Shown: positions 2,013 through 42,695 of the stretch, piece by piece
Position numbering within the stretch: the first letter of the stretch is position 1
Layout of the letters: each line of letters begins with the position of its first letter
IMG/VR virus record: IMGVR_UViG_3300028833_000124
Location: 1 to 64,000 of that record
Reading direction: 5' to 3' (one strand)
DNA from: a virus
Lineage: Duplodnaviria; Caudoviricetes
Length of the DNA: 64,000 bases
Translations under genes and position numbers: made by a program
The notes under the pieces: generated by a model
Told to the model about the DNA's origin: nothing
What the model saw: only the letters and a program-made list of their open reading frames with translations
The model's database searches: none

Positions 2013-4580
2013 TCACACCTTGTATTCTAAGTAATTTGGAAGAATGCTGCATTGTTTGTTTAATGCTGATTCTTTTCTTTTCGCATAATAACCAATAGCT
2101 AAACCAGTTTCCTCAATATTTGGAGTGTAAACAACTGTTATTATGTCATTTAACATTAAACTTGTTGAATCTGTTTCCACATTCACTAAATTGAAATGAA
2201 TGGTTTTTGTTAAGTAATCAACTGTGAAATCCACATCTTCAACTAATTCCTGTTCATTATCTCCGCCTTTGTTTAAGTATACATGGCGGATTGGGTCAAC
2301 TGCTGCTGCTCTTAAAACTATGTATTTGTTTTCCAATACTTCGTTAGTTACTTGTATTGTGTCTTCAAAATAGTCTAAGATTAAAGGCATTTCATCATTA
2401 GTTAATCCCTGAATGAATATTGGATTGTAGCTGACTGATAGTTTTCCTGGTTGCATATCATCTAATACAGTTTCATCAAATGTGATTATATCATTATCAT
2501 AATCTACTGTGTAGTCATACCATTCACCATAACTTTGATAGTATCCTTCACCGTTTGGTATGAGTTGACATTCAAGTATTGGGTATGCAGGAATGTTGCT
2601 GAATTGGAATCCGCTGATTATTTGGTTTTCATCTTCATCTAATCCTCCATCAAAGCTTAAATATTCTGTAGTGGATTCATCAGTATATAAGTATGGTTTG
2701 ATGTATACATTGGATTTCTTTAATGTTTCAAGGATTGTTGGATTGTCAACAAGGTATGTGCATCTTTCATCATCATCAGTTTTACTTGCAATATTGCTTT
2801 GATGTGTTTCACTTAACAAGTAGGTGAATTCATCTAATTCTGAAACTGTGATTACTTCAAAATGTTCTTTAACAATTTTATCCTGGATAAGTTCTGCACT
2901 ACATTCTACCTCACTTGATTCAACTGTAAATGGAGCGTTAGCTCTTCCCCAAACTGCAGCTCCAAGCATTGGTGTGATTTTTGGATTATACATTTGTGTG
3001 CGGACATACATGCTTGTTGGTAAAGTACAATGCACAGTAATGTTTACTTTTTGAATGCTTGGTGTTTCAGTATTATTTGTGCTGGTTTGCCACATTTTTG
3101 CACGTACAAATAATATGGTTGGTTTGCCAGTTATTGCTGCTCTTGAAGTTCCAATTGTATGCCAGTCTTCTGGTTTGTTTCTATTACCTGTGGTGGAATA
3201 TTCAAATTCTAGGAATCTTCCTCTGTCATGGTCTGTGTCATCCCATCCGCTGCATTGAGCACTAATATCAATTCCAGTTATTGGATTTGTGAATATTGGT
3301 TTAAAATATAAGTAATTATAGTTTTCTTCCTCACTATCGAATGAAACATATTCTTCTGAGTGTTCTACGATTTTACATTCAAAAGCAAAGTCTTGTGGAG
3401 TGTATTTTCCTTGTTTATATTCAATTTTATCCAAGTCATTTTTACCATATCTTGTGAATGATCTTCCATTGTTTTCAGATAAAAATGCATCACCATCATT
3501 ATATCTATGACTGCAGTTTCTTCCCCATCCACCTATTCTTGGTGCTTGCTCCCAATGTGCTAATGGACAGAAAACTACAATAGCATAATGTTCATCTTTA
3601 GTTACATTACAAGGAGTATCAAATACAAAACTGTGGAATCCAGGAGTTGCATATTTAGGGTCAAATACTGCTTCTGCTAAAGGATGGTTTATCATTGCAG
3701 CATTATTAGCGAGTCGTGTAACTGGATAATATATTGTTTCAGTTTGACGGATATGTGTTCCGTTTTTATTTTTAACCCATTTCCCTTTGTTTTTACCAGA
3801 AGTAATTTTCTTATATTTCTGTTTTGTAGTACCTGAAGGCGCAGTTATATATACATATTCAGATGCTTTCTTTTTCTTGTTCCATGTTGTAACAGGTACT
3901 TCTTTTGGAGTTGTTGGCCATATTTGAACATATAATGGACTTCCCCATCCAACCCATTTACTACCATTGGTTTCAAGTTGTAATGAAACAGATTCTAATA
4001 CACCAGTTTTACCACATTTGAATGTTTGAGCACGAACAATTGAAGGAATATTATGTACTTTATGATTTTTTAACCATTCAGGATATAATACATAAGGTTT
4101 TGCTTTATTATACCCTACATACCAGTAAGTATTAACTCCACCGTTTTCCTTCATGTTTTTTGTATTGAAATCTTCAGTTACAATCTCTTGTTTTGGTAAT
4201 ACTGCTCTTTTATGTATGGATGCAACACCATCTGATACTGTGGGATATGATTCGATTACACAATCACTTATATCCATATCTAGTAATGATTCGTCGCTGA
4301 AATCTATTGGTATGATTACTTCAGTATCACTGTTGAAGTTAACTGTATTGTTCAAACCATTGACTTGAAATCCGTAACTTTTTGTTGGATCAACAACAAT
4401 GGGGTTGAATCTTTTACGTACATATGGGTTGATGCGGTAGTCTAATCTTTCAATTTCTTGTTTTAGATATTCATCATTTTCACAGTTCTGGTCTGCCCAT
4501 TGTTTAACTGCATATTGTTGTTCTCCAGTTGATGCTATTTTATTTAAATTTTTATAGATTGGTTTGCAATTTTCGGCCAT
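2013..4580 (-). CDS. Large baseplate/tail structural protein
   Basis: 855 aa, beta-rich, between baseplate and fibre genes; function inferred from synteny. Confidence 0.45.
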   Translation of the reverse strand: MAENCKPIYKNLNKIASTGEQQYAVKQWADQNCENDEYLKQEIERLDYRINPYVRKRFNPIVVDPTKSYGFQVNGLNNTVNFNSDTEVIIPIDFSDESLLDMDISDCVIESYPTVSDGVASIHKRAVLPKQEIVTEDFNTKNMKENGGVNTYWYVGYNKAKPYVLYPEWLKNHKVHNIPSIVRAQTFKCGKTGVLESVSLQLETNGSKWVGWGSPLYVQIWPTTPKEVPVTTWNKKKKASEYVYITAPSGTTKQKYKKITSGKNKGKWVKNKNGTHIRQTETIYYPVTRLANNAAMINHPLAEAVFDPKYATPGFHSFVFDTPCNVTKDEHYAIVVFCPLAHWEQAPRIGGWGRNCSHRYNDGDAFLSENNGRSFTRYGKNDLDKIEYKQGKYTPQDFAFECKIVEHSEEYVSFDSEEENYNYLYFKPIFTNPITGIDISAQCSGWDDTDHDRGRFLEFEYSTTGNRNKPEDWHTIGTSRAAITGKPTILFVRAKMWQTSTNNTETPSIQKVNITVHCTLPTSMYVRTQMYNPKITPMLGAAVWGRANAPFTVESSEVECSAELIQDKIVKEHFEVITVSELDEFTYLLSETHQSNIASKTDDDERCTYLVDNPTILETLKKSNVYIKPYLYTDESTTEYLSFDGGLDEDENQIISGFQFSNIPAYPILECQLIPNGEGYYQSYGEWYDYTVDYDNDIITFDETVLDDMQPGKLSVSYNPIFIQGLTNDEMPLILDYFEDTIQVTNEVLENKYIVLRAAAVDPIRHVYLNKGGDNEQELVEDVDFTVDYLTKTIHFNLVNVETDSTSLMLNDIITVVYTPNIEETGLAIGYYAKRKESALNKQCSILPNYLEYKV

Positions 4581-25424: not shown

Positions 25425-25439
25425 TTTGTATCACAATTC

Positions 25440-26440
25440 TAAAATTTTTATAGGTTTTTGTTCTTTTCACTGATTGAAAGTGATTTTTATCTTTTAACCT
25501 TTATTCTTAATTTTTTTTAGATAGCAAGAGCTAACACGAACCTATTTTGCTAAAAAAATAATATAAAGAATGAAAAGGTTTAAGATTTGTTAAAGAACAT
25601 ATGATAAATTTTAAATAGTTTTTTTTATAGGTGGAAATAATCCTATTTGATTTTAGGATGTGTTTTTGTTTCGATTATTAAAATAGTGAAAAAAGTGAAA
25701 AGAGAGTGAAAAAATGAAAAAAACTTTTTTTAATATTTTAATAAGCATTTTAGAGGATTATTTCAAATTTAGAGTTACCTATAAAAAAAACTACGCAGAT
25801 GTATATAGAGGAGGTAAAAAAATTACTTTTTCTACCCGAGGCACATATTTTGTTTGACGCAAAAAGTAAAAGGCTTTGTGCAGAAGCAGAGTTTTTTGTG
25901 TTTAGTGAGGGTAGGATAGTTTAGTGACATAACTACCCAGGATTGGTCAAAGTCGAATAAACCAAAAAAAATATTGGTGATTTTTTTTATGAAGATTCGT
26001 AGATATCAGATAAAGCAAACGAAGTTCATTTTTTTTTACTAAACAGCCTTTTTTTTAGGTGAATAGTTTAGCCACGTGTTCAGGTGGAGTCCTATTAAAG
26101 TAGCGAAATGACTTTGATAAAATTTGAAAAAGACCAAATAATATATGGACTTGGTCTTTTTCAAGTTGAGGTTTTAAAATAGAAAGTTGTTATATTCGAT
26201 GAATTTTAAAGGTTTGGAGGATTAAAAGATACATGGATAAAAATCTTTTTATCCTCCAATGTTTGTTTTTTTAATATACCTTTATTTTGGAGACTTGTAT
26301 ATTAAAATAGTTGTTTTTGACTATTATTTTCAGTTTTTTAAATGACAGAATTTAATTTTTTTTTTACACCATTTTTTTTGGGTGATGTGAAGGTTTAAAC
26401 TTCAGTATTTATCACCATATGATTTTATGTTGGGGGTTTG
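25440..26440 (-). ncRNA. Candidate long structured RNA or leader (no long ORF, hairpin-dense)
   Basis: No ORF of 60 aa or more over 25425-26568; many stems including a perfect 14-bp and a 17-bp (1 mismatch) stem; strand inferred from context. Confidence 0.35.
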
Positions 26441-26444
26441 GTTG

Positions 26445-26455
26445 TATTGTAACAC
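26445..26455 (-). promoter_or_regulatory. GTGTTACAATA motif (putative viral promoter/operator)
   Basis: Identical 11-mer at 41036-41046; 10-mer at 43801-43810. Confidence 0.45.
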
Positions 26456-26568
26456 TTAAATGTAATAAATATTTTACAATGTATTTGGTCTATTAAAAAA
26501 GGCCACAACCTTCACTCAAAAAGCCATGACCTATAATACACTAATGCAATAAACATAAAAAAACAGAA

Positions 26569-35315: not shown

Positions 35316-35444
35316 GCTGTGAGGAGGATTTGCACCTCCATTTAAGGCTCCATGGACATTATTGTCAAAATACAATAGAATGTGACATTTAATTGAAATT
35401 ATAAGAGACTTTTAATTTTTTTATTTTGCCATGTTCTCCACAGC
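35316..35444 (-). ncRNA. tRNA-like RNA 1 (acceptor stem plus T-arm, enlarged interior)
   Basis: 5' GCUGUGG pairs with 3' UCACAGC; T-arm GGAGG-UGCAAAU-CCUCC; followed by a U-rich tract; no encoded CCA. Confidence 0.6.
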
Positions 35445-41061: not shown

Positions 41062-42099
41062 ATGTTAAACAATAAGCTATTCAAAAGATTTTGTAGAGAA
41101 AGAAACATAAAAGAAAGCACCGCAAGTGGTTATGAGTCAGCATTGAAACATTACATTAAATTTCATAAGAAAAGTTTGGATTTTTTAATGCAGGAAGCAG
41201 TAACTGATGAAAATGAAATGGTTCCTTTAAAGGATAGGAAAGTTAAAAAAAGATTGTTGAATTACAGAAGTTATCTGTTAAAAGGTAATAATTCTCCGAA
41301 TACTGTGAGAACATATTTCACTAAGGTTAAAACTTTTTATATTCATTTTGATATTGAGATTCCTCATTTGCCTGATGCTAAGTATGAAAGATTATATGAA
41401 ACTAATTATTTGGATTTGCCTACTCATGAGCATATTCGTCAGGCATGTGATATTTGTGGTTTGGATTTGAAAAGTGTTATTCTTTTTATGAGTTCTTCGG
41501 GTACTGCTAAGGCCGAAACTTTAAGCATTACTGTGGAACAATTTGTTAATGGAACAAGACAATTTCATAATGGTGGATCATTAGAACTAATACTGGAAAC
41601 ATTAGCTCATAAAAAAAATGTTATTCCAACTTTTTATTTGAAACGAATTAAAACTGATAAATATTATTATACTTTTTGCAGTCCTGAAGCTACACGATAT
41701 ATTGTGAAATATTTGCAGACTAGGAAAGATTTAAAGTTGTCAGATAAGTTGTTTGATTTTACAGCTGCTAAATTGTTGAATAAGTTTCAAGAAATTAATG
41801 ATCGTATGGGTTGGGGGTTTAAAGGCAAATACCGTTTCTTTCGTGCTCATACTTTGCGGAAGTTTCATGCTTCCAATATTGGTTTAGCTGCCGAATATAT
41901 TGATGAATTACAGGGCAGGTCTAAAAATTATGTTCATAGCACATATATTAAAACTAATCCTGAGAAGTTGAAAAGGATTTATAAGTCTGCTATGCATAAT
42001 GTTTTGATTTATAATAAGGATGATGTTGATGTGGTTAATCAGGAGTTTACTATTGTGATTAATGTTTTTTTATCTGGTAAGGAATATAATATTTTATAG
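41062..42099 (+). CDS. int: Tyrosine recombinase/integrase
   Basis: N-terminal SAM-like domain; SSGTAKAE, HTLRKF, LQGR, HSTY; only clear plus-strand gene. Confidence 0.85.
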   Translation: MLNNKLFKRFCRERNIKESTASGYESALKHYIKFHKKSLDFLMQEAVTDENEMVPLKDRKVKKRLLNYRSYLLKGNNSPNTVRTYFTKVKTFYIHFDIEIPHLPDAKYERLYETNYLDLPTHEHIRQACDICGLDLKSVILFMSSSGTAKAETLSITVEQFVNGTRQFHNGGSLELILETLAHKKNVIPTFYLKRIKTDKYYYTFCSPEATRYIVKYLQTRKDLKLSDKLFDFTAAKLLNKFQEINDRMGWGFKGKYRFFRAHTLRKFHASNIGLAAEYIDELQGRSKNYVHSTYIKTNPEKLKRIYKSAMHNVLIYNKDDVDVVNQEFTIVINVFLSGKEYNIL

Positions 42100-42108
42100 A
42101 AAAAATAG

Positions 42109-42270
42109 GGAGGAGGGAAGAATTGCACTTCCACTTAATCCCCGTACAATATCCAGCCACAGTTCCAACGTCTTTCCTTGATTATTATTTATTACTTATT
42201 AACCCACAGTAACCATAATCAAAGTGGGATATTCCCATAGGAAGTCGTGCCTAATTACACCAACTCCTCC
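42109..42270 (-). ncRNA. tRNA-like RNA 2 (acceptor, D-arm, T-arm, ~90-nt insertion in the anticodon arm)
   Basis: GGAGGAG/CUCCUCC acceptor; GUGU-AAUUAG-GCAC D-arm; GGAAG-UGCAAUU-CUUCC T-arm; oligo-U after the 3' end. Confidence 0.65.
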
Positions 42271-42287: not shown

Positions 42288-42695
42288 TTAATCTTCTTTT
42301 ATGGTGTTAATTTCAATAATATTATCCAAATTAATAGCTTTATCGATTGGCGGGATTATTGTTGGGTCTTCACTACTTTCTGGCCAGAATAATAAATTTT
42401 CATGAATGCCAACAGGTTCATCTTTATTGATGATATATTTGTTACCATTTAATGCTATGAGTTCAGTATTATGTTTACCATAATTTTGCTGTAATACTTC
42501 CATGAATCCTTCATCAGTTGTGAATTCATAAATATGACCTAATTTATTTTGGATATAGTCTAATATTTGGATTTGATTTAGAAACTTGTTTGTAGCTGTT
42601 TCATCTTCTTTTTCTTTAGCTTCATTTAGTTTGTCCATCAATTCCATTCTTTCAGTATTAATAATGTTGATTATTGTTTTTGCTTCTGATTTCAT
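42288..42695 (-). CDS. Hypothetical protein
   Basis: ORF. Confidence 0.55.
   Translation of the reverse strand: MKSEAKTIINIINTERMELMDKLNEAKEKEDETATNKFLNQIQILDYIQNKLGHIYEFTTDEGFMEVLQQNYGKHNTELIALNGNKYIINKDEPVGIHENLLFWPESSEDPTIIPPIDKAINLDNIIEINTIKED

Follow-up and report, generated by a model that had tools for sequence, protein, structure and literature searches.

Archaeal tRNA genes can be interrupted by introns of up to 129 nt, for which a bulge-helix-bulge fold is the key determinant; introns at non-canonical positions occur, ordinary introns are constrained mainly at the bulge-helix-bulge itself, and the intron of the archaeal tRNA-Trp carries a functional box C/D RNA (PMC4090602). Here we describe a viral gene that is built along comparable lines. 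The stretch of DNA analysed, hereafter the window, comprises bases 1-64000 of the 83,649-nt IMG/VR virus record IMGVR_UViG_3300028833_000124 (G000). Relatives of the recombinase and other genes of this record are found in Methanobrevibacter genomes and metagenome-assembled genomes from ruminants, and the DNA runs in which the stretch occurs come from metagenomes of sheep and other guts, so the host is a rumen Methanobrevibacter. At 42108-42270 on the minus strand, between the gene ORF135 and the convergent recombinase gene Rec1, lies an element composed of a 72-nt His-type tRNA shell that is split between positions 38 and 39 by a folded insert of 91 nt. This element is a real, conserved, structured and tRNA-shaped gene located in tRNA arrays, and is not a viral attachment site (attP). 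Comparative data indicate that it is very probably a functional RNA gene, and we assign a probability of roughly 0.45 to the more specific reading that it is a functional viral tRNA-array gene yielding both a His-type tRNA-like RNA and a conserved insert RNA.

Like the archaeal pre-tRNA-Trp(CCA) (PMC4090602), the viral element has the form of a euryarchaeal-type tRNA gene with a long insert in the anticodon loop that is conserved and, in tRNA-Trp, functional, and both have a helix of bulge-helix-bulge type in which anticodon and insert are paired. Unlike pre-tRNA-Trp, the viral element is without C/D boxes: neither a C box (RUGAUGA) nor a D box (CUGA) is conserved in an alignment of eight copies, and the sequences UGAUUA and CUGU, which are part of helices, vary between copies. 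A K-turn or a box C/D motif in the internal loop was rejected on inspection of the alignment, as the motifs are absent, and the Rfam matches to small nucleolar RNAs in the surrounding region score weakly and fall elsewhere. Further differences are the position of the insert, which is at 38/39 rather than 37/38, the presence of a strict splicing motif in only five of nine copies, and the nature of the gene, which here is viral and has a His-type shell with A34 and G55. Transfer RNA introns cut at a bulge-helix-bulge-like motif can give rise to stable circles, the tRNA intronic circular RNAs of animals and of some archaeal introns (PMC4536317), and this is the form that the viral insert would take if spliced.

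Other RNAs resemble the element in part. As in the TMERs of murine gammaherpesvirus 68 (PMC4337559) and the mascRNA of MALAT1 (PMC8457004), a tRNA-shaped module may recruit tRNA-processing enzymes and deliver a second RNA part; in those eukaryotic systems, however, the payload lies 3' of the tRNA-like part and not in an anticodon loop, and there is no sequence relation. In Staphylococcus, non-proteinogenic tRNA-Gly species without G18-G19 and U55-C56 bind EF-Tu weakly and serve off the ribosome (PMC4574755). The viral element, with an invariant G55 and no G18-G19, recalls them by analogy only, as the tRNA-Gly species have normal anticodon arms and no insert. Plant RNA viruses carry tRNA-like structures that can be aminoacylated, including the His-accepting tobamovirus type. 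The element shares with these the viral mimicry of the acceptor/T-arm half together with identity elements for one synthetase, but the plant-virus structures form the 3' ends of RNA genomes and are organized around pseudoknots, whereas the element is a separate gene, encoded by an archaeal virus with double-stranded DNA, and has both a D arm and a genuine acceptor stem of 7 bp.

Run without introns, ARAGORN makes no calls. When introns of 0-200 nt are permitted, the program makes a single call in the complete 83,649-nt genome, which is the element, and with the same setting no calls in 40 block-shuffled genomes; the tRNA likeness is therefore not due to chance. The model that ARAGORN itself proposes in G000 (Ser-GGA with a 67-nt intron and an unpaired variable arm) is a poor fit and was set aside. 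Searches of Rfam at gathering thresholds and at E<=10 with the window, the element and seven related loci identified no relevant family, and scanning IMG/VR with exact and degenerate T-arm patterns gave no matches. The minimum free energy (MFE) of the element is not better than that of shuffled sequences (z = -0.74). The element was revealed by comparative data, and thermodynamics alone would have missed it.

Eight orthologues of the element are present in other Methanobrevibacter viruses and proviruses (L112, L114, L115, L116, L119, L120, L121 and L122). ORF135 served as the marker gene for orthologous loci, and the first seven were reached through a protein search for ORF135 homologues, which share 59-79% amino-acid identity, followed by tracing of the homologues to their contigs; a scan of IMG/VR for an ORF135 peptide pattern yielded no relatives. 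The eighth, L122, is the one match of a covariance model (R2) in 61 Methanobrevibacter genomes and is part of a provirus array. The orthologues stand in tandem arrays with canonical tRNA-Trp, Leu, Thr and Arg genes and further tRNA-like genes, which are oriented as they are and lie at distances of 10-15 nt. Likewise, in related viruses that were found through the recombinase, the interval between the ORF135 homologue and Rec1 is occupied by tRNA-type genes. One such locus (L002) has two genes that score above the Rfam tRNA threshold (44.5 and 35.6 bits) and that have an extra D-loop hairpin and 'anticodon' loops of 3-5 nt, and a second (L096) contains a homologue of the first of these genes with compensatory changes. 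A third (L098) carries an ordinary tRNA-Thr(UGU) and a tRNA-Leu(AAG), the latter at 3137-3222 with A34 where relatives have the anticodon UAG; A34 is unusual in archaeal systems. In L114 the element type is arranged in tandem with two other kinds of tRNA-like gene, types A and B, and because all three stand in a row the element is a type of its own rather than either neighbour in decayed form. Derivation from a type A or type B gene was discarded on the same ground, only the last ~28 nt resembling type B.

A covariation model was built on the eight-copy alignment (A9) and comprises the D arm, the helix P3 of the anticodon-type stem, a 4-bp helix H, the helices P4 and P5 of the insert, and the T arm. 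In the model 89.8% of cells are paired, compared with 40-54% when the partners are slid; 11 pairs are altered on both sides, compared with 1-3; and the covariation score is 0.25, compared with at most 0.087. The score and percentage paired of the model were reached in none of 500 shuffles. Every cell of the T arm (GGAAG-UGCAAUU-CUUCC, 42116..42132, minus strand as for all parts of the element) is paired, three of its five pairs show compensatory changes, and the T loop reads UGCAAUU, UGUAAUU or UGCAACU across all nine copies. Compensatory changes also affect five of the six pairs of P4 (42227-42232 with 42149-42154) and one of the ten pairs of P5 (42215-42224 with 42176-42185), and both-sided changes are seen in two of six pairs of P3. 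The D stem is invariant in the aligned copies, with a loop of 6-9 nt, and helix H is formed by the pairing of U33-G36 with the insert. The acceptor stem covaries in the orthologues as well, pair 6:67 changing from AU to GC and pair 7:66 from GC to UA. Covariation is thus in support of the acceptor, of the T arm and of three helices in the insert arm. The conserved structure in relatives to which an earlier reading of this DNA, made from the sequence only, had looked as its check is thus present, in the form of eight orthologues with covarying helices.

Relative to the G000 copy, identity is 78-98% in the insert, 70-93% in the shell and 72-84% in the ORF135 DNA. The insert contains invariant single-stranded stretches of 17-19 nt; its core, AAGACGUUGGAACUGUGGC at 42156-42174, is the same in seven of the eight aligned copies, the exception being L119 with one inserted base, and the L122 copy departs from it at one base. 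A search for a host homologue or target of the invariant 19-nt core retrieved only unrelated protein-coding genes, at a frequency like that of controls. At the level of sequence comparison, these values show the insert to be under a constraint of its own and better conserved than the tRNA shell. The 'degenerate' tRNA that the sequence-only reading had considered does not describe an element that is conserved with compensatory changes and in which the insert is the most conserved part.

The shell carries several features of tRNA-His. The loop sequence C32-U33-AUG-R37 (CUAUGR) is invariant in all nine copies, represented in the window by CUAUGGG (C32, U33, AUG, G37 and G38; 42234..42240), and C73 follows the acceptor stem in each copy, whereas the bases beyond it vary. 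For an in-silico removal of the insert we cut each copy at the same relative place, keeping everything up to position 38 on the 5' side and, on the 3' side, everything from ten bases ahead of the T stem onward. The 72-76 nt left by this removal at 38/39 are recognized by ARAGORN, run with its defaults, as tRNA-His(AUG) in seven of the nine copies, and in eight at a 95% threshold. The AUG anticodon, the purine at 37 (G37 here) and C73 had been proposed as His features from the single sequence, and they hold across the family. The shell also has U8, A14, U54, A58 and the G53-C61 pair. A genomic G-1 had been reported missing, and position -1 is indeed A, U or C in the four copies for which the upstream flank was read (G000, L112, L114 and L115). 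Its lack is not fatal to a His identity because the hosts encode a Thg1-like protein (PF04446) that could add G-1, the gene being found in all three host genomes searched. In the long reading frames of the virus, the codon CAU is used 276 times and CAC 65 times.

Several observations on the shell weigh against a His-type tRNA product. The splice point used for the ARAGORN test was picked by the analyst for canonical geometry, and on the genomic sequence there is no Rfam tRNA match even at E<=10. The triplet is AUG in all nine copies and not the GUG of tRNA-His, so that U35 and G36 are as in His but A34 is not; a His anticodon with A34 is unusual for a decoding tRNA, and we know of no cellular case. 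Position 55 is G in nine of nine copies, which is again unusual for a decoding tRNA, and position 56 is U rather than C in two. The D loops end in AG and are without the canonical G18-G19, and a mismatch at 28:42 recurs in the anticodon-type stem.

Whether the two parts could be separated by splicing depends on the junction between shell and insert. A geometry scan detected one motif of bulge-helix-bulge type at this junction in every copy. Between its outer helix and its inner helix, P4, are helix H, in which UAUG is paired to either UGUA or UAUA, and a 5' bulge. In G000 the 5' bulge is GGA (3 nt) and the 4-bp helix is UAUG/UGUA, while the register favored by covariation leaves a 3' bulge of 2 nt (CG), which becomes CGG (3 nt) only if the outer helix is slipped by one, a slip that is made possible by a run of four G near the 3' strand of the anticodon-type stem. 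The earlier description of an archaeal-type 5' bulge opposite a non-canonical 3' bulge therefore agrees with what we see in the covariation-favored register. If the strict motif is defined as two 3-nt bulges flanking a 4-bp helix (3-4-3), it can be formed in five of the nine copies (G000, L112, L114, L115 and L120), where cleavage would be exactly at 38/39. Registers in the motif scan that would give Pro(UGG) or Pro(GGG) were rejected, as the orthologues do not keep the anticodon that these registers imply.

Here too there are points that count against excision. The strict motif needs the slipped outer helix in those five copies, and the remaining four depart from it: the 5' bulge measures 4 nt in L116, L119 and L121, the 3' bulge of L121 can be no more than 2 nt, and helix H is interrupted by a mismatch in L122. 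The unslipped register is moreover favored by a double change (A-U for U-G) in L121. Euryarchaeal splicing endonucleases are regarded as strict on the bulge-helix-bulge motif, and position 38/39 is non-canonical for an intron. Folds that are constrained to the motif lie ~8 kcal/mol above the MFE. Given the precedents among archaeal introns (PMC4090602) on the one hand and a strict motif in only five of nine copies on the other, splicing is possible in this lineage, yet is not clearly selected across the family, and we would put excision of the insert in vivo at somewhat less than an even chance.

In the favored reading, of a gene that yields a His-type tRNA-like RNA and an insert RNA, the element would be transcribed together with, or in the manner of, the neighboring tRNA genes. 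Maturation of its ends would fall to RNase P, tRNase Z and the CCA-adding enzyme, for which the acceptor/T-arm module should suffice. The junction of shell and insert would fold as a bulge-helix-bulge of a 3-bp outer helix, CGG, the 4-bp UAUG/UGUA helix, GGA and a 6-bp inner helix; the host splicing endonuclease would then free the insert in linear or circular form, and a ligase would seal a 72-nt tRNA-His(AUG)-like RNA. The insert is taken to be a product in its own right because it is the best conserved part, with the box C/D RNA of the archaeal tRNA-Trp intron as precedent. That the spliced RNA goes on to decode CAU as His is, on the present comparative evidence, doubtful. A more pointed version of the same scheme is rather unlikely, namely that the shell is in essence a delivery vehicle from which the host endonuclease and ligase cut out and circularize the insert, that the resulting stable circle carries the real function, for example by binding a host or viral factor, and that the leftover His-accepting G55/A34 shell reads CAU or donates histidine off the ribosome.

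Much of the same evidence can be accommodated without splicing, and this is the strongest competitor, which we consider a tentative but serious candidate. The element would then be a 163-nt tRNA-like noncoding RNA whose tRNA-like top half (acceptor, T arm and D arm) secures processing, stability and perhaps CCA addition or charging, while the long conserved arm, standing in for the anticodon arm, binds a viral or host factor; such an RNA would amount to a tRNA mimic akin to viral tRNA-like structures. The register supported by covariation fits this well, being a continuous arm with bulges of 2 nt and 3-4 nt in all nine copies and not the strict motif, and so do the high conservation of the insert, the conserved G55 without G18-G19, which recalls the weakly EF-Tu-binding tRNA-Gly species (PMC4574755), and the occurrence of other non-decoding tRNA-like elements in the same genome and in relatives. 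It leaves the invariance of CU-AUG-R and C73 in nine of nine copies only partly accounted for by pairing, however, and it gives no reason for a shell that without the insert is a default-threshold ARAGORN tRNA-His, or for a strict bulge-helix-bulge being possible in five of nine copies. Of the mimics that the sequence-only reading had allowed, a tRNA-like one is compatible with these data, whereas a transfer-messenger RNA (tmRNA) finds no support: the tmRNA search of ARAGORN and Rfam were negative, a D hairpin is present and there is no evident reading frame for a tag.

At the other extreme, the gene could simply be a decoder, a tRNA-His(AUG) that serves the abundant CAU codons of the virus and whose insert is a functionless intron. 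The His calls after removal of the insert, the codon preference (276 versus 65), the A34 tRNA-Leu(AAG) of a relative, the Thg1-like gene of the hosts and the location within tRNA arrays all speak in its favor, but conservation of the insert above that of the exons, with single-stranded stretches of 17-19 invariant nucleotides, is not expected of a functionless intron, and G55 and the weak anticodon-type stem sit poorly with decoding; we regard it as improbable. A decayed tRNA pseudogene that was broken by an insertion and is without function might seem to be suggested by the missing Rfam match, the non-canonical T loop and an MFE that is not significant. This we regard as ruled out, at odds of a few in a hundred, because the stems have been kept by compensatory changes and the insert is 78-98% identical across nine copies, even though the flanking gene has diverged to 59-79% amino-acid identity in the seven orthologues reached through ORF135.

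The remaining alternative places the function in the DNA, as an attP for chromosomal integration or as a target of Rec1. The element is only 8-9 nt from the recombinase stop codon and tRNA genes are commonly integration targets, and it was on account of its position that the sequence-only reading had proposed the element as a carrier of attP, with a search for an attB core in host genomes as the check. The 24 nt of the T arm and acceptor 3' strand, at up to three mismatches, are matched in none of 301 Methanobacteriaceae genomes, which are a sample, and searching five genomes that contain relatives for the T arm and acceptor 3' sequence found only A/T-rich chance matches. An integrated relative locates the junction elsewhere. 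The provirus on contig C23 of genome G001 is collinear with G000 233-71,087 and ends beside a homologue of a second recombinase, Rec2 (G000 69,718-70,959), and then come host housekeeping genes; the virus-host junction is at ~71.2-71.35 kb of C23, with host genes from 71,346 (a PALP enzyme, EPSP synthase and aminoacyl-tRNA synthetases), and there is no tRNA gene at this junction. The Rec1/tRNA locus of the same contig is internal, at ~39-40.6 kb, and is ~30 kb from the junction. Nor is the association with Rec1 constant, as another gene lies between the tRNA-like genes and Rec1 in L009 and L096 and no recombinase is adjacent to the element in L115, L119 and L120. DNA contigs of three other samples contain no strand-switch or deletion joints at the element. 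Taken with the junction beside Rec2, far from the element, the lack of a host match leaves a DNA-level site very improbable, and the attP proposal is not upheld. Collinearity instead places the putative attP of this virus group near ~71.0-71.1 kb of G000, outside the window and beside Rec2. The genome map is to be amended accordingly, with the site of chromosomal attachment in this group adjoining the other recombinase. Close homologues of Rec1 in the Methanobrevibacter genomes L021, L022, L028, L031 and L033 directly adjoin genes whose ends, by eye, resemble specificity (HsdS) subunits of type I restriction systems. This suggests that the family of Rec1 may also be a driver of phase variation instead of integration.

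Very little work exists on the viruses that infect methanogens of the gut and rumen, and the searches we made of the literature found nothing on their noncoding RNAs. The element, together with at least three other odd kinds of tRNA-like gene in relatives, shows that these viruses maintain tRNA-shaped RNAs in arrays that escape both Rfam and the standard tRNA finders. Excision of the insert, should it occur, would make the gene a viral instance of a tRNA intron with a function, and a naturally occurring archaeal cassette for RNA-in-tRNA expression; were the shell a delivery vehicle, this would be the first viral use of archaeal tRNA splicing for a functional noncoding RNA. A shell that is charged and decodes would, having A34 and G55, count as a rare form of His tRNA.

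The remaining parts of the element can be followed from its 5' end. The 5' strand of the acceptor stem, GGAGGAG (42264..42270), forms seven of seven Watson-Crick pairs with the 3' strand CUCCUCC (42109-42115), which is followed by C73 at 42108; CCA is not encoded. The linker UUG (42261-42263) separates the acceptor from the D-like hairpin GUGU-AAUUAG-GCAC (42247..42260), the loop of which opens with an A (the A14 equivalent) and is without the canonical G18-G19. The anticodon-type stem is made of a 5' strand at 42241-42245 and the 3' strand GGGAU at 42138..42142, and between its loop and this 3' strand extends the insert (42143..42233) with P4, P5, a distal hairpin and the single-stranded core; a helix of AAUAUCC/GGAUAUU closes the base of the insert. 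A variable loop of 5 nt, UAAGU (42133-42137), leads to the T arm. All of the minus-strand features named in the sequence-only reading (acceptor, D-like hairpin, loop, insert helix, variable loop and T arm) are present, its intron-like insertion of ~90 nt measures 91 nt, and the closeness to the integrase stop codon is as it described. Directly 3' of the gene the sequence reads UAUUUUUU (42100..42107), a tract that is putatively an archaeal oligo-T terminator.

Of the two neighboring genes, the convergent Rec1 is located outside the RNA on the plus strand (41062..42099) and encodes a tyrosine-recombinase-like protein (Pfam Phage_int_SAM_1, 22.5 bits) with homologues in Methanobrevibacter viruses and genomes; 8 nt lie between its stop codon and C73, and 9 nt between the stop codon and the acceptor stem. 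Upstream of the element, ORF135 (42288..42695, minus strand) belongs to no Pfam family. DNA contigs from three other samples (X3, X4 and X5) carry the element: the X4 contig covers 42071-42256 with zero differences, that of X3 covers the complete element and departs from it by one difference and one gap, and the X5 contigs cover it in two pieces. Among RNA runs only X20 shares any of the sequence, and its reads do not cover the element.

The other tRNA-like genes of the arrays have features of their own. Type A genes have a palindromic hairpin insert in the D loop and an 'anticodon' loop of 3-4 nt, with compensatory changes in both, and type B genes are 90-91 nt long and are read by ARAGORN as class II tRNAs with C33 and the anticodon CCU (CAU in L122). 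Conserved examples of the two types are found in relatives at L002 4041-4131 and 4145-4243, L096 2331-2429, L114 2479-2687, L115 2168-2372 and G001:C23 40537-40627. A fourth kind of tRNA-like gene is present in L121 and L122.

A second tRNA-like element of the window, element 1 (35316-35444, minus strand), shares UUAARU-GGARG-UGCAAWU-CYUCC with the main element (local alignment z = 4.3), and the stems of the shared segment differ by one compensatory pair. Positional homologues of element 1, with covarying acceptor and T stems, precede a holin-like gene in no fewer than seven further viruses (L083 664-773, L085 1019-1149, L086 1022-1143, L087 1051-1168, L089 988-1165, L090 911-1165 and L093 1075-1160), where they sit between an open reading frame (ORF) of the TFB-type zinc-ribbon kind and the holin-like gene. 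Members of this family have a 7-bp acceptor stem and a T arm, the loop of which ranges from the canonical UUCGACU to UGCAAAU, but no D arm and no anticodon-like loop; the interior is A/U-rich with a conserved UUCUUUrAUAUUCrAUUAAA. An adjacent copy of the 3' strand offers the 5' acceptor strand a second pairing partner, so that two folds are in competition, and the family has no Rfam match. A model of the 3' domain of these holin-upstream elements (R1) scores the main element at 14.8 bits (E = 0.2), which is marginal, and only the T-arm similarity between the main element and element 1 is significant. We treat the two as different families that share a style of T arm. A reading of the pair (E1 and E2) as the attL and attR of an inserted element was rejected, since the acceptor strands differ.

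The second-best match of R1 (15.6 bits, E = 0.11) is an acceptor/T-arm minihelix on the minus strand at 26376-26418 of the window, GGUGAU..UGAAG-UUUAAAC-CUUCA-CAUCACC, inside a long non-coding tract at 25425-26568. Upstream of the holin-like gene of G302, a stem of ~15 bp formed by GAGUUGGAGAGUAAA and UUUACUCUCCCACUC encloses ~100 nt with a conserved CUUUGCUUUUUCGAAUUUCA, and this arrangement is seen with or without a following tRNA-like element (G302 and L059 / L085). Finally, G000 has a direct terminal repeat of 146 nt (1-146 and 83504-83649) with one mismatch at position 127, and because the repeat is inexact it may be real, reflecting terminal redundancy or a repeated cassette, and not the overlap of a circular assembly.

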